DNA of 51,259 bases from Paecilomyces variotii (taxonomy: Eukaryota). Positions 11,001 through 51,259 of this stretch are shown here, piece by piece (position 1 is the first letter of the stretch; every line of letters begins with the position of its first letter). A program made the position numbers and the translations under genes. The notes under the pieces were generated by a model, which saw only the letters and a list, made by a program, of their open reading frames with translations, did not search any database and was not told the origin of the DNA. The DNA lies in assembly GCA_004022145.1 (NCBI GenBank), contig RCNU01000024.1. One strand, given 5' to 3'.

Positions 11001-13522
11001 AATTTCTATATCAGTCTCTGGTCGTGATGCTCATCATCAACGATAGGTTCTTATAAACAATATACCTGAGACGATGAGACTGCTGAAGCCGGAACGATCT
11101 CCCTACGTTGCCCATAGGTCTTCGAAAGACATCAACAAACGGAGTCTATGCTATACTGTTCCTGTTTGCGTAGGTTCAGCGGTATATCCGTCTACGTTTC
11201 GCTGCGCTATTCGATTTGGAAAAGCACTACTTAGATAAACCGACTCAACCCCGCGTATTTACGCTCCCCTTATGCTCGGAGCATACTACCTGATTCTGCA
11301 GTAAAACGTGGCACAGAGCCTTGTAGAAACAGAGCCTTGTAGCTTCCAGAAGTATCGACACGTCCCGCGACCTAGACTTATTTTCACTGCAGGTATTCGC
11401 ACTCAATGGCTGTGATCATCTTGGACTTCGCAACGCCTCTTAAAGGTCTTCGTCTGTGACCTGGGCTTCATCGGCTGATTGAGAGAACGGCTGGCTACGG
11501 GAAAGAGACCTAACGTCGGTTGCGAATAATATTTGGAAGCAGAGTTCACAATACTTGAACCTCTTGGGAATTGAAGATATGCTTCCCTTTATTTTCGTTC
11601 AGCCAAGAGCCAGCCAAATGCGAGATGTATCGAGGATTGGATGCAGCAAGACTTTATGAATAAGCTAGATATCGTGTTACAACAGCGAGTCATGGAAGCA
11701 AAAAGTCATCTCGACAGGCTGAAGCTGCCCGCTGTTTGGATTTATTCACAGGATCGGGCTATTTATCTCTGAACGCAGCTTTCTGAGGCAAAGACGAGGG
11801 CGAACATCTCCTGCAGGAGCTCCATTGCTAGTTAGGGAGTCTCTGAGAGATCATGCCGAACTACCCAGAAAGGGCAGTTAGTCGCTTTCTCCTATGTAGA
11901 ATCCAGGGAAGACCCGACCTTATACTTCTGACTAGAAGTACTAGATCCTTATGGTGTCAGCTATAAACGTCGATTGGACTAGTCGCCTGAACAGTAATTC
12001 ATAAGTGCTGATAGCCTTTCTCTCTATAGGGGTCTAACAGTAGTTCCACAATTTAGTGGGTACCACGTGGTGACAATATGTTGTGAGATACTGAATCAGG
12101 ATATTTCTAGGAACGCTTGTTCTCAATAGATACGTCCTGCTATATTGTGACTATAGAACTCATACTATCTATAATTAAAGAGGTTGTGTTTACAGTTCTT
12201 ATGGAATACTCTACAGAGACTACGTAAACATTACAGCGACATAGAGCTAGTTAATATAAATGTCTCCACTTTTTAGAAATGCCGTAAATTATATATACAT
12301 ATCTGGACTCCCAAGAATCATTGAAGTTGGACGTCAGCCCTCGGAGACAGGGTATCTATATTAGCTACCGCAATACTTGAAAGCCTTTCAGAAGAGAAGG
12401 AGGACATATACTACTTACGCTCCAGGAAAACAGACTAGCTGGCTTCACTTCTGACTTTTCCAGGGATAAGGAATCTAGAAAATCAACCCCAAATAGCTCT
12501 CAAAGGGCACAGTCTGGGATTCTCCCAATCCCTAGCATAGTTACACATTGATAAATGAAACGAACTATCTCCTAGTTATTGGGTGAGGCAGCACATTAAA
12601 GTGTCCGCCGTGAACAACGATATGGGTTTAACAATAATTAAACTTCATGCAGCCCCAGAGTAGATGCCAAGGTTTCCCTAAAATTAAAAAAATCCCAATG
12701 GCAAGGGAGCAATGATATATTTTGAGCTTCTAACAAATAACGATTAGTTGCTTGCTTGTTTTATTCGGGTAGGCCTGGGGGACGTTGGTCCCTATTTACC
12801 TCGTGATTACATAGAGAGTGTAGATGCGAAGGATCTAGAAAATTAGATCGAGTCCTAAAGGACAGGGAAGCAACGACCTGACTTGAGTCTCCTAGCTAGG
12901 CAGCTAGGTTGCTTGACTTGCTTCGTTTTAGATACAGGGAGGAGACTAATTCTGCATTTATCTCCTATAGCATATAAAGAATCTAGATCCTAGTTATCAA
13001 GTAGGTTCTATACCAAAGAACCTGCTGCAAATGGATGATATGACAGATTACCTGCACACTCTTGTGTGCGCCGACAAATTATAATATAGGAATAGTTAAA
13101 TGCAGACGGAGGGTATAACAGGTCCCTATGCATGCAGGCGAAGTCTGGAAAGCTCGACATCCAAGAGGTGCCAGAGGACGCCGGAGGGAAAATTGAATGT
13201 CGTGCTATCAGTTCGCGCCTAATAGAAACAGCAGACAGATGGTATCGCATGTATGGATCTCAGCCAGAATGATCATAGAGTACGTATAGGAAAAGAGTAG
13301 CTCTGCCGTATAAGCATTTTCAGGATTTAATCTCACGACGATTAATTCACCTCTCGTCTTTAAGACATCTTTATGATACCTATAAAATTTGGCTTCGGAT
13401 CACATATCTAGAAAGCAATATTACTGGAGATTTGCGAATGTGTATAGTTTCATGGCGAGGGTTCTGCTACGCAAGTTGTCAGGGCCTTTGAAACAATGCA
13501 TTGAATCTCCGTGCATCATCTT

Positions 13523-13658
13523 GACAGGATGACCGAGTGGTTAAGGTGCAGGCCTGCGTAAGTAGCCTTGATAACACACCATAACTCGATTTCCAACTAA
13601 CAACCCCAATAGTAAGCCTGTGGGTTCGCCCGCCTGGGTTCGAATCCCAGTTCTGTCG
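13523..13658 (+). tRNA. tRNA-Ser(GCU) interrupted by a 55-nt intron inside the anticodon
   Basis: Acceptor stem GACAGGA/TTCTGTC with G73. D arm/A-box TGACCGAGTGGTTAAGGT, anticodon stem CAGGC/GCCTG, variable arm GGG-TTCG-CCC, T arm CTGGG-TTCGAAT-CCCAG (B-box). Removing 13558-13612 gives loop CT-GCT-AA and an 81-nt tRNA. Confidence 0.9.
13558..13612 (+). other. Spliceosomal-type (GT-AG) intron within the tRNA anticodon, between nt 35 and 36
   Basis: 5' GTAAGT (13558-13563), branch site CTAAC (13597-13601), 3' TAG (13610-13612). Length is 55 nt, the same as the mRNA introns at 4024-4078 and 27358-27412. Confidence 0.75.
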
Positions 13659-13663
13659 ACATC

Positions 13664-13678
13664 TTTTTTTCTTTTTTT
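13664..13678 (+). terminator. RNA polymerase III oligo-T terminator of the tRNA gene
   Basis: T7-C-T7 begins 6 nt after the tRNA 3' end. Confidence 0.8.
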
Positions 13679-14104
13679 GCCGGTAGTCCATACCTAGCAG
13701 GGACAGAAACTAGCCGTGATTCTGCGTCCAAATTATTATTATTTTTATTGAGCCATGTGGCGGAGTTCACACAACTTCAGAGACCAACCAAAGCTCACAG
13801 GTTGACAGTGTATCCCGCCACGTGCTATAAGCCAAACCGAATGACTTCGATTATTGGACCGTCTGAGTAGCCGAAGGCTATACGATATTAACCTAGAGAA
13901 AAAGGGAAAGAAAGACAATAAAGAGAAACTCGAATTCACTACTAAAGTCGGTTCACCCGTCGTCATCACCCTGATGTCAGGCGGCAAACTCCCAATGTCA
14001 AAGCGCTACAGCTTTCGATTAATAGAACAGGACCATAACTCATCTAAGAATAATTTCGCTCACACAGCCAAAAGAAAATTCGTCTAGTCCAGCTTACAGC
14101 CAAA

Positions 14105-14974
14105 ATGTCGTCCGATACACATCCCGAGTCTAACGTCAACCATCATAGCACTGGCTTCCTAGATCTGGAATGTGCGACCAAAATATATCCATACCAGGGA
14201 ATACGACAATTCTGGAATATTAGGGAAATGGAGTGGCGCAAGCTAGAGGAGAATATATAAGATAGCGAATGGGTGTTATTTACTGATGTGGACAAGGAGA
14301 CATTCACCCGTGACTTCCTTAACTCTTCCGACAACATCATCCTCCGCAGCTGGAATTCATACGACAAAGCTAAACACTTCTTACTGATCAAGATGCCTAC
14401 CTCATTGGCTCATGAAGCTGCAGCGTCCGAATTTGCAGAAATCTTTCTCGAAGTCCTCCGGCCAATGGGCCTTTACGATAAGCTCTATAAATGGGGAAGC
14501 GCAACTCGCTACAACGACAAAGGTGGCAAATGACCTGAGCTGCAGTTCGTACCTAAAAGACCACCACCAGATTACCCTCGATACTGGCCCACGGTGGTGC
14601 TGGAAGTGGCATTGACTGAGCCACCATCCAAGCTCATGTCAGACATTCGATACTGGCTTGGCCAGTCCTCCCGCAGTGTTGAAGTGGTAGTAACGCTCCA
14701 AATCAATCGAAACATGCGCGAAATTATCCTACAGAACTGGCAGTCTGCCAACAGCCGTCCACACAGAATACAACAAGTGACTGTTTACAAAGGCTCTAAC
14801 GATACAATAAAAGTCGACGATGGCCCCCTTGTCATTGACTTCGAAAAGCTGTTCCTCCATCCGCCAGGCACACCACAAGAAAAAAAAAACATTGGACTGG
14901 GAGATGGCGAGCTGCAATATCTTGCGACTTCAATATGGACAGCACAGAACCTCGATCAGGAAGATGATGAATGA
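14105..14974 (+). pseudogene. Pseudogene of a fungal PD-(D/E)XK restriction-endonuclease-fold protein
   Basis: One 290-codon frame from ATG 14105 links the track ORFs 14273-14533 and 14594-14974. It is broken by TAA (14258-14260) and TGA (14531-14533). Motifs: IKMPTSLAHEAAA, GGK*PE, WPTVVLEVALTE...L..DIRYWL. Family assignment is from motif resemblance. Confidence 0.6.
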
Positions 14975-20215: not shown

Positions 20216-21386
20216 TCAACTAGAAGCCACCACATTCTCAAACTCTGCCTTTTCCACCATCTTCAGCAGAGCATCTGCGATTCCGTACGAAAAGGCATAT
20301 CCGCCACCACCGAATCCGTACGCAGAAAGGAGTGTCCGCTCCCCGACACGTTCAGAATCTAGGCGAAAGCCGCCCTGGCGTGAAGGACGAATTCCCACAA
20401 TATAACTCAGGTCGGATTCCGGCGGATTGGCGGGAACAATTTCCGGTGCAAGGCGATGGGCTCTTGCAATCTCATCGCGCGCGATTTCCAGGTCGACCTC
20501 TGGCGAACTGTTCCCAGTTAGTAGTGATGATTTGAAGACGGGACACTGCTAACTCACGTAACGTTGGGCTGTTTGATACCCCCCAGGACTACTCCTTCTG
20601 AAAGAGGCCGAGGAATGACATACGTGTATTCCTTTCCGTTGCGGAAATACATCGTTCTGCAGTTGGAGGTCTTCAAAAAGACGTTCTGGCCACGATCAGG
20701 ATAACATTTGTCATCTCTAACATCATTCAAGAGCTTGCTGCCCCAGCCACTGGCATTGATGAAAATCCGGGAATCTGGAAACATTGAGTACAACTCCTCG
20801 AGAGAGGAGACCTTTTGTCGGATAAATTTGCCACCAAGAGATTCAACCTGCTTCCTAAGATAGGGCATATGTTTAGTGGGATCTGTCACCAGACAGTCGT
20901 AGGACCATGCACAGTTGAAGTTGGGTGGGAATTCGCCCGGGGCGAGCTCTTGGAACTATACATGCGTTAGAACGGTCATGGCATATACAGAATTAGACAA
21001 CTTACGTTTGATACGACTGTCCTTCCCCAGATAGCTGAATTCTTTGCAGGTGCCTCCTCCAGATATTCTCTAGCATTGACCATGCAGACACCGGATTCCG
21101 GTTCTTGTGCCATCTTCAATAGGTGTCGATGTGTCACCACCTGGAGGTATCGGTGTTCCTCTGACAGGCCGCCCGCGGCATGCCATGCAGCTCCTGCCCA
21201 TGCTGAAGCGTAGAAGATATTCTGATCTCCTGGAAGATATTCTCCTACAAGCACGACTTGGAATCCATTCTGAAGAAGCTGGCGTGCGGCTGCGCAGCCG
21301 ATGATGCCGGCACCTAGGATGACGATCGGTCGTCTCGGGTAGGGTAGACTGTTGATGCCGTTTGGAGTAGCTGAGTTGCCCGTCAT
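20216..21386 (-). CDS. D-amino-acid oxidase (FAD-dependent), 3 exons
   Basis: FAD motif ILGAGIIG, plus ASAWAGA, INASGWG, PDRGQ, YVIPRP, GIRPSR and AYGFGGGGY. Introns 21005-20956 and 20557-20508. Confidence 0.9.
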
Positions 21387-24559: not shown

Positions 24560-26114
24560 CACCGCTGAGATGCATTATTGCGCAATGGTTGATGGATATC
24601 GGCGATTGAGCGAATTCTGTATGGGTGCGTTTTCGGATACTGATTTGTTTAATACACAGAGTAATAATACAATATACCCTCTCATTTAGAGACTCGTTCT
24701 TCATTATGAACTATTTACTGTTTCATCATTATCATGATTATTGACTATTGATCACCACAGGCTGTCATGAAGTCTATTTAGCGTGTAAATTAGCAACAGG
24801 AACACACGCCTTGCCGCGTAAATCAAGGATCCAGTGCTCTAGAGTACATGCTTGCATGCACTAGTTATATATATATAGTCTCTATCACATTGATGTTGCT
24901 ATGAGTTCTTTGTCTATCTGATTAGCGAAATAATATTCTTGACAGGTCATAGACATGAACCCAGCACCGGTTGCAGAAATACATTTATTGTACGACACAA
25001 AAGAGAAATGATGAATAATAGATCCCTAAGCCTTCGGGTGCATCTTTCTCGTACAGTACAAAATATACACTACAAAGTATCCCACATGTTTAGTTATTAA
25101 TTTCCTTCTTTAGTCTGCGAACTAACCGTAAACCTGACAAGAGATAGTTATATATAGCCCAGTTTCATATATTCCCGTCATGTTTCCTCCATATCTCTTG
25201 ATGAGCTCTTGCGCCTGTTCTACTCCGTACACTAAGTGTTAAGAAGACGTGATTGATGAACACCCTTCTCGGTGTTGCATCACTGGTGGCTTTTTTTGCC
25301 CACTCTGTATGGATGTGGCTGATTTTGGTGCGCACGAGCATTGGGGCCATTTCTGAAGCCAACCATGGTTCCACAATGAACCGACCATCAAGAATGTTTG
25401 GGTGTTTTCTCTTCTGATACCTTGCCATTGCAGGATATTGCGCTGTAGAGACCACGATGGTTGTTCTTATGATGGATAGTCCCTGTGCAATTGACCTATC
25501 TCCGCCACCATGAGTGTTTCTGCTGTATAACTACTGTGCAACGGCCAGCAGATGATCTGTTGCGCAAAATAACGCCAGTGGAGGCTTGCCGCATAGCCGT
25601 GATCCCCCGTCTTTCAAGTTTCCCCCCTTTTCGCCCCTCTTCTAAGTTCCACAGTCGATCTATCCACCATTTTGTGTCTCATTGGTGATGGACTGTAGGA
25701 TCGTCGGCGCCATAACCGCTCTAAGGTCAAGACGGTGTGCAGCCAGCGACGCCTGCTCATGGCTTCAAAGACTGATAACTGAGGCTCGGCGTTATCGGAT
25801 CGTCAGACCTTCACTACTGGAGCGATGGCAACAGGGGAAATCCGTCTGCTAAGCTTCACACTCGACGGAGCGGCGCAAAAGCTTTTCTCGCGCAGTCGTT
25901 GGACGAACTGCCACCGGCGCTCGACATTTAGAGAAACTCGGTTGAACCGGGGCCCCTCTGGCTCCTCCCACGAGCGTTGGGCGGCGGATCTTGGTCAGGT
26001 TATCGTCCCATCATCTTCCCCCGATCCGCCTCGAACAAACGACACTGTCACCATCCCGTAGACTCGTGGTGATCATGGTGATGGCCGTTGCGGTTCGAGC
26101 CGACATCCTCCAAT

Positions 26115-28077
26115 ATGGCCGCCAGCACGACGGGCAGTGATCGGGATTTCCGCGAGCAGTTGGGCAAGTTCCGTCTCGACCCAGCTGTCGCCGCCAGCGT
26201 TACGTCCGAGCACACGCGGACAGACACCCAGCAGACGCGCAGCAAGCGTGTCTCTACGGCCTGCGAGTTCTGCCGTAAGAGGAAGAAGAAATGCGACTTC
26301 AGATACCCCAATTGCAGCGCGTGCACGCGCGCCGGTGTGCGCTGTACTGTCCTCTCTCAAGGTCAGCAGATCTTCAATGCTTCTGTGCCTCGAGATCAGC
26401 TTGAGAAACTCCAGAAGCGGGTGGAATGGCTGGAACATATCATCCGCAAGAAGACCGGGGCCGATGTCTCTGATACTCCAACGGGCAGTGCCGTGGACGG
26501 CGAAGGAGAGCTGGACTGGTGGTATCATGTCCCAGACCTCATCGCTGGGAATCAAACCGCGACCAGCCCTGGAGGGGCGACGGATTCCTCCAGCGCTGGG
26601 TCTCCTGGGATTGCTCCGGAGCTGCCTAATATAGGAGAGATCTTTCGTGATAAACTTGAGAACCGACGGCCGTCGACGGCCCGGCCAGCAGCAGCATCGC
26701 CAAAAGTCCTTCGGCTCTCTTCCTTCGAAGAGGCGCAGACAGTCGCGAGCGAGTATTTCGACAGTCTCGGATATCAGTATCCATTCCTTCACCGCGGGGA
26801 GTTCATGACCAACCTGCGGCGGATCTATAACGGGGAGACAGTCCCTGCGGACGCGCAATTCTCCTACCACATAACCATGGCTACGGCAGTACTGATCGGG
26901 TCGTCGGATGGAAGTATGTCGTCGTCGTTCTACAACGCGAGTCGGGAAACCCTACCACTGGCACTGCAGAATGAGGATCTCCCAGCGCTGAGGGCTCTCC
27001 TTAGCGTCGCCCTCTATACGATGTTCTCAACGTCCGGGCCAAGCGTCTGGCATGTACTTGGAACAGCGATGCGCCTGGCGACAAGTCTGGGCTTACACAA
27101 GGCTAAGCAACCGGGGCAGGCAGTAGATCTGGTGGAAGACCAGATGGGGAAGCGTGCTTTCTGGAGTCTCTACAACCTTGATCGTTTGACGGCTGCAACC
27201 CTGGGACGCCCAGTAAGCATTTCAGACGAAGACATTACGACGGACCTTCCGCGCGAGTACGACGACAATTGGATCGAGGCACCGGGCGCATGCGCCATGA
27301 GCATTCCTGTTCAGGTGGTCAGGCTGCGGCGCATCTTCTCCCGGGTCTATCGTGCGTGTAAGTATTTCCCTCACGATATTTCCATTCTACATCAGTCCCT
27401 AACATCGTCTAGTCTACAGCAATCGACCGCGTCCATCTAGAGAGGTGCTTGCTCAGATGATCAATGACTTCAGGACCGAGTTGGATGCCTGGCGTACTAA
27501 CGCACCACTGCTCCTCTCCGCAATTCACTACTCGACTAGTTATTTTGATTATCTTTACTATACCACCTTATTACTTATGTACCGTCCCAGTCCTGTCAAT
27601 CCCGCTCCCGATGACGCATGTATTGTGGGCTGCGGCGACTCCAGTATCCAGATCATCCGATCGTACTGGGACAGTTACTCCCTGGGGAAGATCAAATGGA
27701 TCTGGTTGACCCTATGCCAGATCTATTCAGCTGGAATAACCATCCTATGGTGCATTGAACAGAATATTCGCGCCGTCAATGAGGGACGCCCCATTCTCTG
27801 GGAACCAAAGGATGACATGGTTCGCTATGGAGTCGATGCAGTGGTCGTGCTGCTCGAGGAATTTGGAAAGAGAAGGAACGGCGTTGACAGACTCGCTACG
27901 ACGTTCCAGAAACAGAGCTCTGCCGTGCTCAGCAGAATGGTGCATTCGCCTCCGGGCATTGATGACGTGCTCTTAATGAATGGACCTGTCCCAGAGATCG
28001 ATCCTAGCGTCGTTGAGCAATTGTTCTACGCTTATGATTGGTTTCAGGACGAAGTCGCAACATTCTATACCCTATAG
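26115..28077 (+). CDS. Zn(II)2Cys6 fungal transcription factor (Ppr1/UaY-like architecture)
   Basis: CEFCRKRKKKCDFRYPNCSACTRAGVRC cluster, coiled coil, middle homology region (YPFLH, WHVLGTAMRLATSLGLH, RAFWSLYNLDR...LGRP). Intron 27358-27412 joins ORFs 26088-27440 and 27445-28077 in frame. Confidence 0.9.
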
Positions 28078-29918: not shown

Positions 29919-31440
29919 ATGAATAGCGAAGATTGGACCAAACTGTTCTTTTCCGGGAACCCTCCCGATTGGATTAGTGTTTCTCCTGAAGATCAGAAAA
30001 GCTTCAGGACTTTTCACCATAAGAGAAAGTGGGTGCTGTGGAAATCAGTTGATAAGGGTCGATACCCTGCACCAGATCGAATTCAAGTTTTATGGCTCCT
30101 CGTGAAATACCACCAGGGCTATCGACGCATGTATGTTGCGAAAGTGGTCAGTCACTCTGCCGAGGCCAGTTTTCAATGTTTCCGATTGAAAGCTAATATC
30201 CAGTTCAGTTCCCGGAATATACTGAAGCACAAGCTCGAGCTCAGCTCCGTCGAATTCCTTTCTCACGTGATCCAAAGCAGGTCCGGGATGAACTCGATCC
30301 CTTTCTCAACGAAGCTCGAGTATTCCGTCGCATTGAAGAGCGTTGTGATAGCTCACGAAAAATCTATTTTCCCCAGTTTCATGGTGTAGTCACTGATATT
30401 GACCCTTCGACATTTAAGTCTGGGTATTCCAACCGGCGTGCCATTATTCTCGAGGCCATCAAGCCAGATCTTTCGTCTCGGCGGATCCTGGCTGCACATA
30501 ATCGCGATTCCGACGAGCGTGTTGCACGATTCCATCAGCGGGTCCGAGATATCAAACCAAGCCTCAGTGCTTTTGAATCTGATTACTACAGTTCTCTCTT
30601 CACGGACCGGGTTCATCGGCTAGATGCACTACACGATCTTGCGATCACCCATGGCGATATACGAGATGATCATTTCAGGCTCCCCGGGGACTTCTACGAT
30701 ATGGTCCTTTATGACTTCTCTATCTCGTACACGTTCTCTCCTATACCACCTTATTTGGTGAACTTGCGGCGACCTCGACCACTGAAAGATATATCAGAGA
30801 CAGAACAACTGTTCCTTGCGGAACAAGTATATGAACGGTATGCCCAGTATTCCAGCTGCTTAGTGCGCAACTAACCTGAATTTAGAGCTCAAAAGCGGGA
30901 TTTGCGTGATCATCTGATTCAGTCAACCAGGGTCGCCGCAGAAGTCATCGAAGATGCACTCTTTCAGCCCCTCCAGGATGAAGAGCTGGAGTTGGTCATT
31001 TTCAAAGTTATGACACGACCGGATGGTAGGTTTCTTCTCTTCCCCCTTCCCACTGACTCATCATTTATAACCCCATAGCTTTCTCTATGCCCTCTCTCAG
31101 TTCGGTCTTTCCCTTTCTCGCAACCATTTGCCCACAGAATGATCCTACTTGGCATATCCGTAAGGGCCGGCAGCTGGACCACTATGCTCCGGCTTGGGTC
31201 TTTCTGGGAAGGTCGGGAAACTTATCAAATTCGGTTACGTTGATGACCATTGGCCACCATCAGGCCCCCAATGTTGGACTCTTGGAAAACGAAAGCGGGT
31301 ACTATCTGCTTTGCCTGATTCCGAAGGAGTGGGAGATAGATGGAATACATAATAAACTGCGGCAAGTCTGCTCGTCCCTGGAATTCTCCAAGGTCTGGGG
31401 TTATATTATCAGACGGATAGAGTTCGATGATCATACTTGA
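29919..31440 (+). CDS. Atypical protein-kinase-like protein, 4 exons
   Basis: Exons 29919-30146, 30209-30837, 30886-31025 and 31079-31440 splice into one open frame. Motifs YVAKVF, DPFLNEARVF, FPQFHG, ITHGDIRDDHF (catalytic loop-like) and VLYDFS (DFG-like). Exon 2 is absent from the ORF track. Confidence 0.75.
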
Positions 31441-41116: not shown

Positions 41117-43194
41117 TTCTCTTTTAAAAGAGTAAAAATAGATTTCCCCTTCTTATTTTCTATAATATTCACTAAGAATATAATAGTAGTAAATTAATAT
41201 TTTAACCTTTAATAGAATTTAATCCCTATTAGATTTAATATTTAATATAATATTAAAATAGTTTATTATAAATCCTCTTATTATTACACTTAAGTAGACT
41301 AAATTAGATTTATTAAAGCTTTAATCTAGTAAAGCAGTATAATAGAGAACTTTTATTAGTATTATAAAAGTATAAGAAGGTTAAATTCTACTAAGTCCCG
41401 CGAGAAGCGAGGTTACTAATATATATAATATAACTGGCAGAATAAGGCGGTGAGCCCTAAAGGCGGTAAGCCCGCGGGTCTTCTCTGTAATACCTCTATT
41501 AATTTAATATTTAAGAGATATTAGACGCGTTTATTAATTAATATCTTAATCTTATATTCTGCTATACTATCTTATTTTATACTAACTAGCTTAGCTAGTA
41601 TAAGGATTTAATTAAAGAAGTCTTTATTATATATAGTAAGTTTAAGATAAAGAATTTTTATATAAGATATAATTTATTTATTTAGTTATAATAAAAGATT
41701 TATCTATAAGTCTTTATAATTATTTAGATTATTAAAGTAAGAGTTATTAAATATTTCTTTTTATTTCTTAATCTTATTATAGTTAGAATTTTTAATTTTA
41801 TTTTAATAAAATATCTCTTTTTTATTATAATAAAAAACTTTATTTTCTTTTTAAAAAAAAGATAAAATTTTTTTAAAGCTTTTCTCTTAATTATTAGTAC
41901 TATTCTTCTTTTTATTTAAAAGTATATATATATTTAATATAAGATTAAGTAAGATAATAGATTAAGTTATTAGTTAATCTTTTAAATTCTTTATTAATAC
42001 TATACTTAATAATACTTTTTAGAGAATATAGTTAAAAAGAATAAGGAATAGACTTAAATTACTTAGACTAATCTATAGTCTTATAAAGGCTAATATTACT
42101 TAGGGAGAGAGAGTATTAGTAATATTTTAGATTATAAAGATAGTAAGTAAATCTTTATTTAAGTAATAGAGTTTTTATAAAAAGCTTAGAGAAAGGTTTT
42201 TCTAAGTTTCTTAATTTTATTAAAATAAAATTATTCTTAAAGATTTCTTTAAAGTAAAATTTATAGTATATTTAATATTTATTAGTTTTAACTATTATTT
42301 TATAATACTTTTCCTTAGTCTAGACTTATTAAGTTAATTAATCTTAGTTAATTTAAAAATCTTAAGAAGTTTATCTTTAATAATAACTTAGTAAAACTAT
42401 CTACTATTATATCTTATATTTTAATAAACTTAATACTAATTCTATTTCTTTAATATAGATTATATATATAGTAATATATAATATTAATATACTTTAATCT
42501 TTTATAAGTATAGGTATCTCTAATTAATAATAATAATATTTAATTATTCTTATATATCTTTATTAAGAAGCTAATAATAAAAGTTTATTCTTTTTTTACT
42601 TTTAGTTTAAACTTATTAAGACTAATATAATATCTATACTCTATATCTCTTAATAGAAGGGCTAGCTATTAGAATTATTTTATAGTTTAATATATAGCTA
42701 TATATTTAGCTTCTATAGTTAAAGTTATAATAGATTAATGCGAATAATAATAAAATAATAGTTTTAGTAGCTTAAATACTAGAATTTTAGATAAATTTAG
42801 AGAATAAAGCTTACCCTCTTCTATTTAGCGGGAGAAGAAGACTATATTTAACTAATACTTATATAATAGAATACTTATATCTCTATATCTCTCTTTAGCT
42901 ATTCTATTAGTAGATTTATATTAGAATCTCCCCTTTTTATTAAGCCGATATTCTTATTATAACCCTTTTATATTTTTTATTTAGCTTCTATAGTTAGAAA
43001 TAGCTATTCTATTTTTTATCTATAAAAATATTAGTATATTTAATAATTATAACTAATTCTATAGTTATATCTATTAATTAAAAAATATTTAGTTTATTTC
43101 TATTATTTATAAATAATATCTATTTTTAATTCTAATAGGTTTTTTTTTAATTATTATACTTATTCTTAAACTATAATATTATAATTTATAAATA

Positions 43195-43691
43195 TATATT
43201 AATATAGAAAAGTACTAATAAAAAGAATTATATAATATTAAGAAATTATATAAAAACTTAAGCTATAAGGTATAATTAGATATAGAAAAAAAGGGTATTA
43301 TAGAATAATCTAGTATTATATAAATAGAACTATATAGTATATATATAGTAAAAAATAGAGAGATATTAATCTAAATATATAATATAGCTAAGAAGAATAG
43401 TCTAACTATAACTCTAATTATATAATACTATTATATAATATAATTATAAGTTCTCTATAATATATAATTAAAGTCTAGTATTAGTATTCTCTATTAATAT
43501 TAAAGAAAGAAAAAAAAGAGAATATATTTACACTATAAACTAATACTAATATTAAAAGATAAAAAAGGTAAAAATAATTATAAAGGAATATATAGATCTA
43601 TTAATAATAGTTATTTCTTAGGCTTAAACTTATAAAGGTAATATTATTAACTAAATATATAAAGATTAAAATAGATATTAAGATAAAAGTA
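43195..43691 (+). repeat. LTR-like direct repeat, copy 1
   Basis: Aligns by eye with 47877-48325 (e.g. AATATAGAAAAGTACTAATAA, CTCTAATTATATAATACTATTATATAATA, CTTAGGCTTAA). Differences are mostly G/A and C/T. Ends are approximate. Confidence 0.8.
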
Positions 43692-46600
43692 ATATAGATT
43701 CTCTATAGCTTACCCTATAGTAAGGTAGCGAGGTATAGGGAGAGAACTGGTAGTACTAGACCGCCCTAGGCCTAGTATTTAGTAGTAGTACCCCTTCTAG
43801 AGGGAGAATTAAGCTTCTTTATCTCTCTATCTCTACCTTAATAATACTATAGTTATCTCTGTAGAGTTCTTCTATATAGGGCTATATTAAAATAGTAATA
43901 TATCCTTTATTAAATAAGGTCTCTAATTATAGATTTTAAGTTTATATATTATTTTTTATTATTTATTAATATAGATTTAGCTATAGGGATTCTATACTAT
44001 TAATTAATTATTACGATACTATTTATTAAATTATTAGTAATAATTTCTCTATTAAACAGAAATTTTATCTATTTTCTTTTTCTTTATATCTCGCCCTAAC
44101 CCTTCTAATTATTATTAAGCTATTATATTAGTTATTAGTAGTATAACTATTATTAAGCTATTAATATCTTATTAGTATTTCTTCTATTAATTTTATATTT
44201 ATTCTTATTGTTTTTATTATTATCTTTAATTAATTTATTTATCTCTAATTTAATATATCTAAGTAACTAGAAGATAAACTAAAAGAAGAATTCCTAGATC
44301 TTTTAGAAGATATTATAGAATTAGGATTTTAATTAATAATATTTTATAAAATTAAGTTATTATATTAGAATTACTTTAACTAAGAATTAATTAATTAAAT
44401 TAATTTTATAGTATCGAACTATTTACTATCTTTAGTAATACTAGTCTAATTTTATAACCTGTTATTAATAATAGTATATTATTTAATAATATAAAGTAAA
44501 GTACTATTAAAATAAGCCTTTATTTTTTCTATAAAATAAATAATTAACTAATTCTATATATTAAAAGCTATACGGAGCCTTAAATAGAGAATAGCTAATA
44601 TACTATAGCTAGTATTAGCTACTAATATTCTTTCTATAAAAGAAGATTTACTTTAATAAACTTATAGTAATACTATATAGTATTATACTACTAAAAAGAG
44701 TATAAAGTAAATTATAAATTATATTATTAGCTAGTATATAATTATAAATAAACTCTATAAATTAAATATTAAGTAATTCTAGTAATAGAACTAATATATT
44801 TATATTAGACTAGTAGACTAATAATAGAAATAGTAGTATAAATAATAATATAAGAATATTAGATATAATATAGTAAATACTAGATTAAAACTAGGCTTTA
44901 ATTAATTGCCTTTAAGAATTATAGAATTAGAGTTATAACTAAATTAATAGAGAAATACTTAATATAAATAGAGGTTTACTAGTATTCTTATAGAAATAAA
45001 ATAACTTAGATTATTTTTATCTAAATCTTAAGAATATAGATTATACTAGAAATAGATTAATAATTAATATTAGGAATTATATATATTATTATAATATTCT
45101 TATTTTTATTAATAGAATCTATAATCTTATAGTAATTAAAGGGGAATTAATTATCCGGACTTATATTTATATATTACTTTATAGTATAACCTTACAATAG
45201 TTTATAGTAGAATTAATAGACCTTAAAAAGAACTCTTTATATTATCTAACTATTAAAGTAGAGTAAATCTCTACTTTTACTAAATAGTTCTAAAAGAACT
45301 CTACTATAGTAATATAAAAATTAAATTAGTTTAAATATATAATAATAGATATAAGGAATAGATATAATTTATAAGATTTTATTTAATTAGTAATTAGATT
45401 ATATTAGGCTTCCGGTATAGATAATATCTATAATTAGCTTCTTATAATATAGAACTAATTAGATTTTAATCTTAAATATAATATCTATATATTCTGGTTA
45501 AATACTATACTAGGAGATTTTATATATAAAATAAAGAAGACCTTTACTATATAATAATAATATTAGTAGAATAATTAAAGATAGAACTAAATAAACCGAT
45601 ATCTCTTTAATACTCCCTATAGTAACTAAAGAAGATTTCCTAATACCCCTTTTAATAATCCTAGAAATAAATATTAGAACTTATATAATATATAATATAT
45701 TAACCAGAAGAATTAAAATAGACTATAGTTTAATTAATAAATATAGTTATTCTCTTATTAAAATACTAGTTTCTAAAATTTCTAGAATTAATATTAGTAA
45801 CTATTATAGTAATAATAATACTTATAATAATTATAATAATAATAATAATAGATATAATAATAATAGTAATTTTATTTATTATTTTCTTAGTGCCTATATT
45901 AAAACTAGAATTATTATTAACTAGAACTATAATAATAAGATACTATACTATAAAGAAACTTTAGTAATATAATAGGCTATTAAAATACTATATTAATATA
46001 GGTTTATTATAGAGATACTAATAATAACCTTATAGAAAGTAATATTAATCTAGAGTTTAAGTTAAATAATAAATAATATTAGAATAATATATAATATAGT
46101 AGTTTTAAAGATAGATTTTATCAGGGTATTTATTATATAAATTAAAATTTTTATAAGAAATAAAATTTTCTAAATTAAGGTTTTAATAAAGTTATAAGCT
46201 TTACTAACTTCTAAGATAACTTTAAAGACTACTATATTAATACTAATTATATTAATTCTAATAATATAGAGTAATTTAGTTATTACTTTAAGTACTATAA
46301 TTACTATAAGTATTTTATATTAAATAATTAACTCTATATATATCTTTATAGAGTAAATTATTATTAAGAGATATATTTAAAGAAATACTTTAAGCTAACT
46401 ATATTAAAAGAAATAAATATATACTATATAGAACTTTAGATAGCCTATATTAGTAATAACTCTTATATTATTATAGAAATCCCTAAATACTATATATAGT
46501 ATTTTAAAGAAGTCTTTAGAAAATAGTAATATATAATTATTAAGGCCTATTTTATAGAATTATAGAAGCCGGTTAAACTAATTCTAAATACTAGCTATAA

Positions 46601-47568
46601 TATAATTTTAGCTAATTAGGAATTTATATAGAAATATTTATTTAATATAGTTATATAGAAAATAAATTAAGATATAAAAGTTTATAGTATAGAAGCAAGT
46701 ACTTATATATTAACTAACTTTATTAATCTTATTTTAAATATTCTAGTTAAAAGAGATAATACTAAAGTATTATTCTAGATTAATATAGAGATTTATCTTA
46801 TTAATAAGTTATAAGTAAATATATTAATTAAAAATAATATTATTATATTATTAGAAATAGTATTTAACTTTAATAAGAATATATTATAGGTAAAAGATAT
46901 AATTATAGATATTATAGTAATACTAAGGTAGTATTACTAGCTATACTCTATATATAGTATAATATATTATTATCCCGCCTAAATTAATAACTAATATATT
47001 AATATATATTATAAAGAATCTTCTAGATAATAGAGACTTTATCTTTAAATCTTTCTATAATTAAATACCTATTTATTTATATACTTATATTATAAATATA
47101 AATTTCTTCTTTATATAGACTATTAATAGTATATTTAGGGAATAAATAATACTATAAAAAACTTAGCTTAAACTTTTCTATAACTTTAAGGAGATAAATA
47201 TCTTTCTCGCTAAATCTAATACTATAATATTACTTTTAATATTAAAGGAACTAGAACTATTACCTTAATAGACTATATCTTTTATAGATTATAAATACTG
47301 TCTCTCTAATAGAATAACTATATATATAAAATACCTAGAGACCTTTAAATATTATTAATAAGTTATTAAATAATATAATATTTAGAGAGACTATAGCTTT
47401 ATTAATATATTAAAGGAAGAATAAATAAGAATTAAACTAAAGAATAAATAGTAGAATAAGATATTATAATATAATAGGCTATATTAACTTAAACCTTAGA
47501 ATTAAAATATTATTAATTAAAAGTTTAATAGGCTTTATATATAGAATAGAATATATTATATAGTAATC

Positions 47569-47877
47569 TATACTCCCTTTAGATATTCTATCTTTATAAT
47601 CTAGAAGAATATTATTAAAAATAATAAAATTATAATAAAATTATAAATAATAATTAATCTTAGACCTTTAAATAAAATAATAGAGATAGATATTTATTTA
47701 ATTCCCTTTTAAAAAAATATTTGTTATTTTATTACTAGTAAAGCCTATATATCTATATTTAATATTATATACTTCTTCTATTAATAATATATATACCTAG
47801 ATAATTAGTAATATCTTATAGTAATTATATATTAAAGATAGAAAATATTTAAAGTTATAATTATAGGGTTTAAAAAT
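47569..47877 (+). mobile_element. RIP-degraded Ty3/gypsy reverse transcriptase fragment
   Basis: The literal frame reads YTPFRYSIFII*K...IIINLRPLNK...DIYLIPF*..I...SKAYISIFN...FFY**...IIY*R*KIFKVIIIGFKN. Reverting transitions gives TPFGYPVFVVWK...VVDLRPLN...GKAYISVFD...FFYQW...THRGQE.F.V..MGFKN. Confidence 0.75.
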
Positions 47878-48172
47878 ATAATAATATAGAAAAGTACTAA
47901 TAAGAAAAATTATATAAGAAGCTATATAAGAACTTAAGCTATAAAGTATAACTAGATATAGAGAAAAAAGGTATTATAGAGTAATTTAGTATTATATAAA
48001 TAGAACTATAATATATATATATTATAAGAAGTAAAGAGATATTAATCTAGATATATAATATAGCTAAAAAGAACGGCCTAATTATAACTCTAATTATATA
48101 ATACTATTATATAATATAGTTATAGGTTCTCTATAATATATAACTAAAGCCTAGTATTAGTATTCCCTACTA

Positions 48173-48210
<38 letters not shown>

Positions 48211-48325
48211 TATATTCGCGCTATAAAAGATCTACTAATAATAGTTATTCCTTAGGCTTAAGCTTATAAAAGTAATATTATTAACTAGGTATATAGAGAT
48301 TAAGGTAAGTATTAAGATAGAAATA
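47877..48325 (+). repeat. LTR-like direct repeat, copy 2
   Basis: Second copy of 43195-43691. It lacks ~55 bp present in copy 1 and carries an A28 run (48178-48205). Confidence 0.8.
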
Positions 48326-51259
48326 TTAATTCTATATTTCTAATAATAGAAATATAAATTTTTTCTAAATATATATTTTTTAATTTTTTAGACTAGCTTT
48401 ATAGTCTTAAAAGCCTTAATAAAAGCGCGTTGCCTCTAATTATAGATATACCTTCTATTTATTTTATAGCTTTTTATAATAATAAAGAATTCTGTCTAAA
48501 TAATAGAATTAGTCTATTTAATTCTTTCTATTAATATATTTAAGATATTATTTAAACCTATAATTAAAATAATAGCTAGAAATATATATAGAATTATAAT
48601 ATATTAATTAATAAGCTTAGATAGAAAAGTAATATTAGAAATAAGGTCCTAATATATTATAGATAACTACTTCTATATTTTAGTTTTTATAATATTTAAA
48701 GTTTAGTAATCCTTCTAGATACTAATATACTAAAAAAGAAGAGTATATTATATATATATAGCAGGTCCGGTAGATCTATAGAGTAATATAAAATATATAA
48801 TCTTAGTATTAAAGGTATAATAAACCTTATTAGTTTAATCTATACTAAAGTCTTTAATATTCTAGTATATAAATATCTAATCACTTATATAGTAAATAAA
48901 GCTTATTAATATTAATCCTTTTTACTATATATAAGACTACTATTACTTAAGCTTTCTATATATTTTAAGGAGAATCTATATATAGTTTCTTATATTCTTA
49001 TAGTTTAAAAAGATACTTCTCTAAATAATAATAAATCCCCTCTGGTATTTAATTAAATTAGGTATATTTATATTAATATACCGAAAATATATTAAATTTT
49101 CTAATTATATATACTTTATATAGTAAGAGTAAATAATTAAATACTAATTCTTATCTAGCTAATAAATAATATATTAAAGGTAATAAATAGAGTCTTAATA
49201 TATAACTTATTATATAATAAAGTAATATATTATTTATAATTATTTTAGGTTACTTTACTCCCTTACTTTATATTAGTAGTATTATAAGAAGATATATTAA
49301 GACTTAGCATAAAGTCTTTAAGCGAGTAGGTATTAAGAAGGAAGAGAAGGGTATTTAATTTTAGAGCTTAGAGTAAAGTTAGAGAAGAAGCTCTAGCTAT
49401 AAACTAATATAGTAAACTAATAATAATCTAATATTAAACTAATATTAAATAATAATAAAAAGGTAAAGCTAATTATTTCCTTCTAAATAACTTAAAGATC
49501 TCCCTCCTCTCCTCTATTATTTTGCTTATAGACTTTTTAAAGACTTTAAGTAGAAGTATATAATTTCTTAACTAATTATATTCTTTATACTAATCCTCTC
49601 TATTATATAGTATTCCTCTCTTTAAAAATAGATGCTCTTATTTATCTTCCTTAATTATTATAATCTATACTATTTCCTTCTTTTAATATTATAAATTATT
49701 CCTAAAGTAGGAATACTCTAGTTTTTAATATTATATATATTTTAAAATCTTTAATTTATAAAGCTAAGTTCCTTTCTTCTATAGATAATCTCAGATTAAT
49801 AATATATCTTATTTTAATATAAAGTATAGCTCTATTTTAACTTCTAAGTAATTTTAATTTAGCTAATTAAGTATTACTCTGCCTATAACTATAACTCTAT
49901 TTATCTAAATATTAAAAGGCCTAGATTCTCTTTAGTTAGATCTTATCTTATTTTATTCCCTATAATTAAAACAGCAGATATTATTAAAATCTATTTTTTA
50001 ATTCTCTAGTATTAGTTAATGCAGATTATTAATAAAGATTATTTTTCCCTACCTAAGTATAATATCTCTTAAGCCTATAATTTCCTTAGATTTATTTTTA
50101 ATAATTAGTCTAGTCCCTAAGATTATAAAGCCCTAATCTATTCTTTTCTTAGGGATTATAGTTTCTATATTTAATGCTTTTAGCTTATATCCTTTAAGAT
50201 ATTAGATCTATAACCTATATTTGCTATAATTATATAATACTAATTAGATTAAATAAACCTAGATATCTTATATAATAATCTTCTAGAGAATACTCTAAGA
50301 TAAATTCTTAAGCCCTATTAATTCTTTATCCTTTTTCTTATAATAAAGGGCTGCTTTTACTTCTATAATAATATATTATAATATTTTTTTTATTAATTTC
50401 TCTTTAAAAGATATAATTTAAAAAACCTTATTTACTTTCTAATAATTAAAATCCTCTCTTATTATAATATCTAACTAAATATATTAGTCCTATATCTTAT
50501 TTAGAGTAAAATTTTCTTTATTTAAGTTAAAATATTTTCTATCCCTATATTTAGATTTAGGATATTTTTTAGCTCTATATAAGTTATCTTAAGCTTTATA
50601 ATATAAGCTGCTAGATATATTATTAGAAGTATTTATATTAATTAACTTAAGATCTTTAAATAGTTAAACTATCCCTAATATTAGGGATTTCTTAGGGAGA
50701 AGATCTTTAGATAAGGTTTTTTTAACTTTTATTTTATTTTTATTTTTTATATTTTTAGGACTTCTTAGAATAGGGCTCTTTATTTTTTTTTAACCTAGCT
50801 ATTACTAGATATACCTAATATTTACTTAGCCTTTAAGTTATTTTTAAATTATATAGTTCTAATATTTTATATATTTTTTAAGTGCCCAGTTTCTTTTTTA
50901 ATAAAGGGGTTTTCTAAGTTTATTATAGAAAAGGAGGGCTTTATATTAATTCTTAAGGCTTTATTAAAAGGTTTTATTACTTATTTATTTTTAGAGATTT
51001 TATTTATAGACTATTTAGTTTCTTTAAATAAATTTTTATAAGAATAAGTTATTATTTTAAATAATCTTTTCTTCTATTATTTTATTACTGCTAGCTTTAT
51101 ATTTTTAACTATTTTTAATATTTCTCTAGCTTTTTTTATAGATATATTCTCCTTTATATTAATTATATTAACTAATAATTATATATATAGCTTATAAATT
51201 AAGTTAATCTTCCTAGAATAACTTACTATAAGACTTCTTAATCTCTTTAATAAATTATA

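Follow-up and report, generated by a model that had tools for sequence, protein, structure and literature searches.

An apparent spliceosomal-type intron inside the anticodon of a tRNA-Ser(GCU) gene of Paecilomyces variotii

In the textbook division, spliceosomal introns belong to the transcripts of RNA polymerase II (Pol II) and the introns of transfer RNA (tRNA), like that of XBP1/HAC1, are removed by an endonuclease and a ligase; the known exceptions are small nuclear RNA (snRNA) and ribosomal RNA (rRNA) genes, the rRNA cases reportedly coming from ascomycetes. Here, we describe a tRNA-Ser(GCU) gene of Paecilomyces variotii that is interrupted within its anticodon by 55 nucleotides (nt) carrying the signals of a messenger RNA (mRNA) intron. 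The gene occupies positions 13523–13658 (+) of the stretch analysed (51,259 nt of contig RCNU01000024.1, assembly GCA_004022145.1), which is referred to throughout as the window, and an intron-less paralogue was recovered from public sequencing runs. That snRNA and rRNA genes can carry spliceosomal introns is already established and it is the tRNA host that is new; a spliceosomal-type intron in a tRNA anticodon adds the most abundant class of RNA polymerase III (Pol III) transcripts to these exceptions.

The closest described systems are the introns of fungal snRNA genes. The U6 gene of Schizosaccharomyces pombe contains an mRNA-type intron that the spliceosome excises, and other fungal U6, U2, U5 and U1 genes also carry introns, many of which are species-specific; the introns of the U6, U2 and U5 genes are proposed to have arisen by reverse splicing, with reverse transcription and recombination as the subsequent steps (PMC5855946). 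The locus in the window resembles these cases in that a GT-AG intron, of a type for which an origin by reverse splicing has been proposed, sits in a small non-coding RNA gene transcribed by Pol III. It differs in that U6, U2 and U5 lie at or close to the spliceosome's active site, which explains why they were hit (PMC5855946), and a tRNA does not. Furthermore, the S. pombe U6 gene is the only copy and is known to be spliced, whereas here a redundant intron-less copy exists and splicing is a prediction from the sequence. The spliceosomal introns of rRNA genes (Bhattacharya et al., 2000, as cited in PMC5855946) are comparable in that they interrupt abundant structured RNAs that are not made by Pol II; they differ in belonging to Pol I transcripts and in not falling inside a functional triplet such as an anticodon. 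The list of intron-bearing non-coding genes in the same review does not include tRNA (PMC5855946).

Among tRNA introns, those removed by the Sen/TSEN endonuclease likewise interrupt the anticodon loop in nuclear tRNA genes, and their known range of lengths includes that of the insert described here (PMC4090602, PMC10946435, PMC12530127). They lie between positions 37 and 38, whereas the window insert lies between positions 35 and 36, has a GT start, a branch site and an AG end, would give the wrong anticodon if cut at 37/38 and occurs in one of at least two isodecoder genes. Introns with a bulge–helix–bulge (BHB) motif, found in archaea, red and green algae and nucleomorphs, are similar in lying away from 37/38 and in being mis-called by standard finders (PMC4090602, PMC3978253); unlike them, no BHB can be drawn at the 35/36 junctions of the window. 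Fungal and algal short introners without transposon features are also short non-coding GT-AG units that appear to have been inserted precisely, and for which transposition by the spliceosome has been proposed (PMC11146597), but they are defined by many near-identical copies in protein-coding hosts, and the window (51 kb) shows one copy. In the articles searched, no tRNA gene is described as carrying a spliceosomal intron; such genes might be listed among the fungal isotype mismatches of Supplementary File S3 of PMC8450103. The letters 'spliceosom' occur 0 times in the tRNAscan-SE 2.0 paper and in the tRNA-intron review (PMC4090602).

The match of the gene to the Rfam family RF00005 (tRNA), at 13523–13658 (+), is the sole Rfam match across the window; it scores 43.1 bits (gathering score 29) and covers all of model positions 1–71. 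The alignment sets 59 nt opposite four model positions of the anticodon loop and thus gives an insert of 55 nt. Exon 1 (13523–13557; tRNA positions 1–35) contains the 5′ strand of the acceptor stem, the D arm, the 5′ strand of the anticodon stem and C32, U33, G34 and C35, and exon 2 (13613–13658; positions 36–73) contains U36, A37 and A38, the 3′ strand of the anticodon stem, a 12-nt variable arm, the T arm, the 3′ strand of the acceptor stem and G73; both were delimited using the Rfam alignment, the ARAGORN drawings and the contig of the paralogue. The drawings display a type II cloverleaf with a 3-bp D stem, a 5-bp anticodon stem (13549–13553 paired with 13616–13620), a consensus T arm and a discriminator G at 13658. 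The long variable arm and G73 are marks of serine identity. An A box (TGACCGAGTGG; 13530–13540, +) and a B box (GGTTCGAATCC; 13637–13647, +) were read off the sequence by comparison with the consensus, and two T7 runs resembling a Pol III terminator (13664–13678, +) begin 6 nt past the end of the gene; no run of four or more T residues is present inside 13523–13658, intron included. By its internal boxes and T-run terminator the host is of the Pol III type, rather than the Pol II type that is usual for a spliceosomal intron. A preliminary description of the locus had proposed such a type II cloverleaf, with A/B boxes and a terminating T run, and the Rfam match, the ARAGORN drawings and our reading of the sequence bear it out.

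The anticodon GCU, set in a 7-nt loop (CUGCUAA) with U33 and a purine at position 37, is present only once 13558–13612 is removed, and the identical loop is found in the intron-less paralogue. When 55 nt were excised in silico at each of the five possible registers, ARAGORN named the product Ser(GCT) from the 35/36 register alone; the remaining four gave Thr(AGT), Thr(GGT) and, twice, Arg(GCG). The 35/36 product scores 118.6, compared with 114.5 for the product of the 37/38 excision (Arg GCG with U37). Since no other cut restores GCU, any working tRNA from the interrupted copy requires excision of the GT-AG unit. Both the loop CU-GCU-AA anticipated in the preliminary description, with its serine anticodon and purine 37, and its warning that tRNA finders would mis-call the gene agree with these results: on the window itself, ARAGORN finds no tRNA gene (0) with default settings, calls this gene Thr(AGT) with an intron at 33/34 under the -i option and calls it Arg(GCG) with an intron at 37/38 under -if.

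The insert (13558–13612, +), placed both by the sequence scan and by the segment that the paralogue contig skips, begins with the 5′ splice-site consensus GTAAGT (13558–13563, +), contains the branch-site consensus ACTAAC (13596–13601, +), in which the predicted branch A at 13600 lies 12 nt before the 3′ G, and ends with the 3′ splice site TAG (13610–13612, +). It has the features expected of a U2-type intron (GTRNGT at the 5′ end, CTRAY at the branch, YAG at the 3′ end and no AG between the branch A and the 3′ end), and its length and GC content of 0.40 are in line with those of five other likely introns of the window (50–63 nt, GC 0.38–0.56), a set from which 31026–31078 was left out for lack of a usable branch site. 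One of the five, at 27358–27412 (+), is also 55 nt long, with GTAAGT, CTAAC and TAG; it connects the frames of open reading frames (ORFs) 26082–27440 and 27403–28077 in a transcription-factor gene (26082–28077, +) whose upstream ORF contains Zn2Cys6 and Fungal_trans domains. These domains mark the organism as a fungus; a protein-atlas search gave only an OPT transporter family of mixed taxa. It is a real fungal mRNA intron and is built like the tRNA insert, which upholds the likeness in length and signals drawn earlier between the two.

A strict scan of both strands looked for segments of 40–120 nt that start with GTAAGT, contain a CTAAC whose A is 8–25 nt away from a terminal YAG and lack any AG in between. 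It returned three segments in the window: the tRNA insert, 27358–27412 (+) and 20956–21005 (−). The expectation from 200 first-order Markov simulations is a mean of 0.425 (maximum 3), or ∼4 × 10⁻⁶ per start position, so the exact fit of such a segment to the sole register that restores GCU is not a product of chance. A relaxed scan (GTRNGT…CTRAY…YAG) gave 14 segments against 11.9 expected, which is the chance level, and therefore only the strict signals carry weight. From its sequence features, we regard the insert as a bona fide spliceosomal-type (U2, GT-AG) intron between C35 and U36.

Other classes of insert were also considered. A length of 55 nt is far below that of group I and group II introns, and at E ≤ 1 only the tRNA family of Rfam matches 13400–13800. 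A structured intron was set aside, as the fold of the whole gene is not unusually stable (z = −1.56). Neither junction fits the loop consensus of an Ire1/HAC1-type site (C at −3, G at −1 and G at +3; checked by eye). BHB motifs were drawn at each of the five registers; for an archaeal or algal non-canonical intron at 35/36 the central helix has 1/4 pairs, the outer helix 2/5 and the inner helix 1/5, and this class was rejected. A minus-strand intron candidate that overlaps the tRNA (13467–13579) was disregarded because it comes from the relaxed scan.

The stretch is represented in public sequencing runs of an organism designated A (∼32–37 Mb of contigs per run; 71 Mb in run X9) and in food-fermentation metatranscriptomes. 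Contigs of four runs (X1, X4, X5 and X8) were aligned to the 601 nt of 13300–13900 at 80% likeness; X8 (organism B, a small share) covers 13842–13900 only, and X4 and X8 together leave most of the segment uncovered. A 402-nt contig of run X4 (organism A) has 0 differences over 13522–13557 and one differing letter over 13613–13662, and omits exactly 13558–13612; the joint runs from 13557 to 13613, its ends are GT..AG and it cannot be slid in either direction ('both' = 0). Because the paralogue lacks exactly this segment, the 35/36 boundary is real independently of any reasoning from the anticodon. The two gene copies thus differ by a precise GT..AG unit and no target-site duplication is present. 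Rfam and the paralogue concur with the preliminary description in placing the interruption, 55 nt with GTAAGT, CTAAC and TAG, after C35.

Outside the tRNA, the 402-nt contig is unlike the window, with loose ends of 70 nt upstream and 246 nt downstream, the latter with a T10 run of its own, and a second X4 contig matches 13738–13900 perfectly. The unrelated flanks and this second contig identify the 402-nt contig as a separate locus and not an allele of 13523–13658, and this is so whether X4 is DNA or RNA. On the evidence of these contig sequences, the organism carries at least one uninterrupted Ser(GCU) gene. The preliminary description had recommended looking for another Ser(GCU) gene, and here one was found, uninterrupted and with different flanks. 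The existence of this intron-less copy means that AGC/AGU decoding need not depend on the spliceosome, and the earlier suggestion that decoding of these codons is tied to mRNA splicing is weakened accordingly.

A CATCATC(T) motif directly upstream of the tRNA (window 13510–13522) is common to the window gene and the X4 paralogue. Downstream, the likeness of the two extends over ∼4 nt plus the T run, and the flanks farther out are unrelated. The common CATCATC(T) could be a leader motif specific to the family or a remnant of a duplication at the DNA level.

The interrupted locus itself is contained in an independent 5932-nt contig of run X1, which spans the whole 601 nt with the insert included, and six further organism A runs hold 0.56–0.93 of the sampled words; it is therefore not an assembly artefact. 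The X1 contig derives from a diverged strain (12 differing letters and five gap letters over 601 nt). Its listed changes comprise one in the 136-nt gene (13575 C>T, in the interior of the intron), with the splice signals and all 81 exon bases left unchanged, and the 465 nt of flanks contain nine listed substitutions and two insertions. This pattern fits constraint in its direction, but the counts are too low to separate it from chance.

The reading that we favour, with a confidence close to even, is that of a lineage-specific intron gain in a redundant Ser(GCU) copy, with the interrupted gene a neutral or near-neutral passenger that would contribute little and the intron-less paralogue supplying the tRNA-Ser(GCU). 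The exact GT..AG indel without target duplication suggests either a gain linked to the spliceosome or a precise loss mediated by RNA. In one route to a gain, an excised mRNA intron would have been reverse-spliced into the tRNA transcript and later fixed in the genome; in another, the target of reverse splicing would have been the DNA strand that an R-loop displaces at the tRNA gene, again with subsequent fixation. Transposition of short introns by the spliceosome, including reverse splicing into R-loop DNA, has been discussed (PMC11146597), and R-loops have been reported at yeast tRNA genes (PMC4214602). In the case of a loss, the intron would have been removed precisely from the other copy via a spliced RNA. 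Isodecoder genes are typically either all intron-bearing or all intron-free (PMC10946435), and the presence of one gene with and one without the intron suggests a recent, copy-specific event, whose direction we infer to have been a gain.

Several observations weigh against a passenger intron of this kind. Within the 51-kb window, neither a donor intron nor a second copy of the 55-nt intron was found (the best other BLAST match is 15 nt, E = 0.45). The exon junction, …TGC/TAAG…, is not a typical proto-splice site. The interrupted gene and its splice signals are intact in the second strain, and the exons remain the same, or almost the same, as those of the paralogue (0 and 1 differing letters) with no decay, which fits a working gene equally well. 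Finally, run X4, the source of the paralogue, is recorded as 'RNA? (a guess)', with a mean contig of ∼314 nt; the contig sizes and the terminator-bearing flank of the paralogue make low-coverage DNA the likelier description.

The strongest alternative, which we consider possible but doubtful, is that the interrupted copy is a working tRNA-Ser(GCU) gene whose Pol III transcript (or one made by Pol II read-through) undergoes splicing in the nucleus by the spliceosome, which would assemble the anticodon before RNase P, RNase Z and CCA addition complete the tRNA. The central step would be recognition of a Pol III pre-tRNA via GUAAGU, ACUAAC and UAG and its splicing at 35/36 to make GCU, which we put forward tentatively and which would require the pre-tRNA to reach the spliceosome. 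Such a gene would account for the perfect splice signals at the sole register that restores GCU and A37, for exons that have not decayed relative to the paralogue and for the retention of the gene in the second strain. With no stretch of four or more T residues in its way, Pol III can read through the intron. The intron of the Pol III-transcribed S. pombe U6 gene and the spliceosomal introns of rRNA genes provide precedents (PMC5855946), but the articles searched gave no published case involving a tRNA, and the intron-less paralogue makes the copy dispensable.

The predicted local fold cuts both ways for this alternative. In the favoured fold (13554–13565), CUGC of the anticodon loop and GUAG at intron positions +5 to +8 form a stem that encloses a GUAA tetraloop, with a probability of ∼0.8; the first four bases of the intron (13558–13561), which belong to the 5′ splice site, are predicted to be mostly unpaired (0.92–0.98), but the next two, +5 and +6, which complete that splice site, are predicted to be paired, as is most of the branch site, four of whose six bases are predicted to be unpaired at only 0.27–0.37. 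According to this model, the CUGC/GUAG pairing would half-bury the 5′ splice site. The tRNA splicing endonuclease, moreover, is the default handler of pre-tRNAs with inserts in the anticodon loop. The contigs of the RNA libraries X1 and X5 do not contain the joint 13557/13613, but X5 spans 13664–13900 only and contigs cannot show the absence of spliced RNA from the locus. The 5.9-kb contig of X1, an RNA library that may be DNA, carries the tRNA insert unspliced, together with a neighbouring minus-strand intron that is spliced in X5.

That endonuclease could in principle cut the transcript at 37/38, which we consider improbable as an account of the locus. Since seryl-tRNA synthetase ignores the anticodon, the product would be a serine-accepting tRNA with the loop CUGCGUA (anticodon GCG, U37), which would read the arginine codons CGC/CGU as serine or be degraded as aberrant. 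The eukaryotic enzyme places its 5′ cut according to how far it lies from the tRNA body, this register is one that ARAGORN accepts under -if, and a structure of the appropriate type can be drawn, with the intact anticodon stem as the outer helix (5/5), three of four possible central pairs (C32:G, U33:A and G34:U) and 3-nt bulges at both sites; canonical introns have an anticodon–intron pair between position 32 and intron position −3 and a 3-nt bulge at the 3′ site. However, this conformer is weak (−2.6 kcal/mol compared with −8.2 kcal/mol for the favoured fold, 5.6 kcal/mol worse, with pair probabilities of 0.001), and C32:G and U33:A are not evidence of design because any …AG intron at 35/36 creates both pairs. 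The product places GCG and U37 on a serine-type body, and its U37 goes with the lower of the two scores given above. A mistranslating tRNA should face counter-selection, but two diverged strains retain the allele. The canonical position is also rejected on the evidence of the paralogue, in which the inserted unit is GT..AG at 35/36 without positional ambiguity.

That the GT-AG appearance is a coincidence, arising from a random insertion or mobile fragment in a dead tRNA pseudogene or from an assembly error, is very improbable: although neither a spliced RNA joint nor a conserved orthologue was found in the contigs searched, a strict intron-like segment is expected at only ∼4 × 10⁻⁶ per position, its boundaries match both the sole anticodon-restoring register and the paralogue indel, an independent contig and several runs contain the locus, its exons are undecayed, and the absence of any non-tRNA Rfam match at 13400–13800 (E ≤ 1) leaves no group I or II signature.

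The interrupted gene and the intron-less paralogue in the same genome form an unusually clean before-and-after pair for intron movement, differing by an exact GT..AG unit without a target-site duplication. If the spliceosome does assemble the anticodon, no earlier tRNA has been shown to rely on splicing of the mRNA type, and the gene would also record, in nature, how the spliceosome transposed an intron into a tRNA gene. The locus also sets two splicing systems on one RNA with distinct products, as the spliceosome would yield Ser(GCU) and the endonuclease a serine tRNA with an arginine anticodon. Finders miss or misname such genes (here as Thr or Arg), and similar cases may hide in fungal annotations.

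Metagenome contigs were searched using a pattern consisting of a serine-type D loop followed by CTGC and then a base other than T, which also fits bacterial tRNA-Cys(GCA). Among the matches listed (115 loci), none (0/115) has GT after CTGC and 107/115 have AA; 80 are called tRNA-Cys(GCA) by ARAGORN. With GTRNGT added, the pattern gave six matches in viral contigs, none of which (0/6) has a tRNA body, and 0 matches in contigs of prokaryote genomes. A number of the metagenome loci (L007, L010, L020, L023, L025, L026, L030, L033, L035 and others), from a few host-associated metagenomes, combine a near-identical tRNA-like head with a conserved tail of ∼70 nt. They look like a family of tRNA-derived short interspersed elements, unrelated to the tRNA-Ser insert.

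Downstream of the tRNA gene, 13721 is followed by 13776 in an X5 contig (RNA library, depth 105); the 54 nt left out have CT..AC ends, so that 13722–13775 is a minus-strand GT-AG intron (GTTGTG…GCAG). The spliced minus-strand transcript heads toward the tRNA gene and extends to at least 13664, just past the terminator of the tRNA gene; on the minus strand, 13664–13900 showed no convincing ORF. Also just downstream of the tRNA, two protein-like ORFs of 90 and 146 amino acids lie in one frame at 14261–14974 (+), split by a single stop codon (14531–14533), and neither has a Pfam match; the pair could represent a pseudogene or else a nonsense allele specific to the strain. At the far end of the window, a block from ∼41500 to 51259 is AT-rich, with a GC content of 0.16–0.19 compared with ∼0.47–0.55 in the genic part, which pulls the mean GC of the window down to 43%. 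This block looks like repeats degraded by repeat-induced point mutation or a region flanking a centromere.

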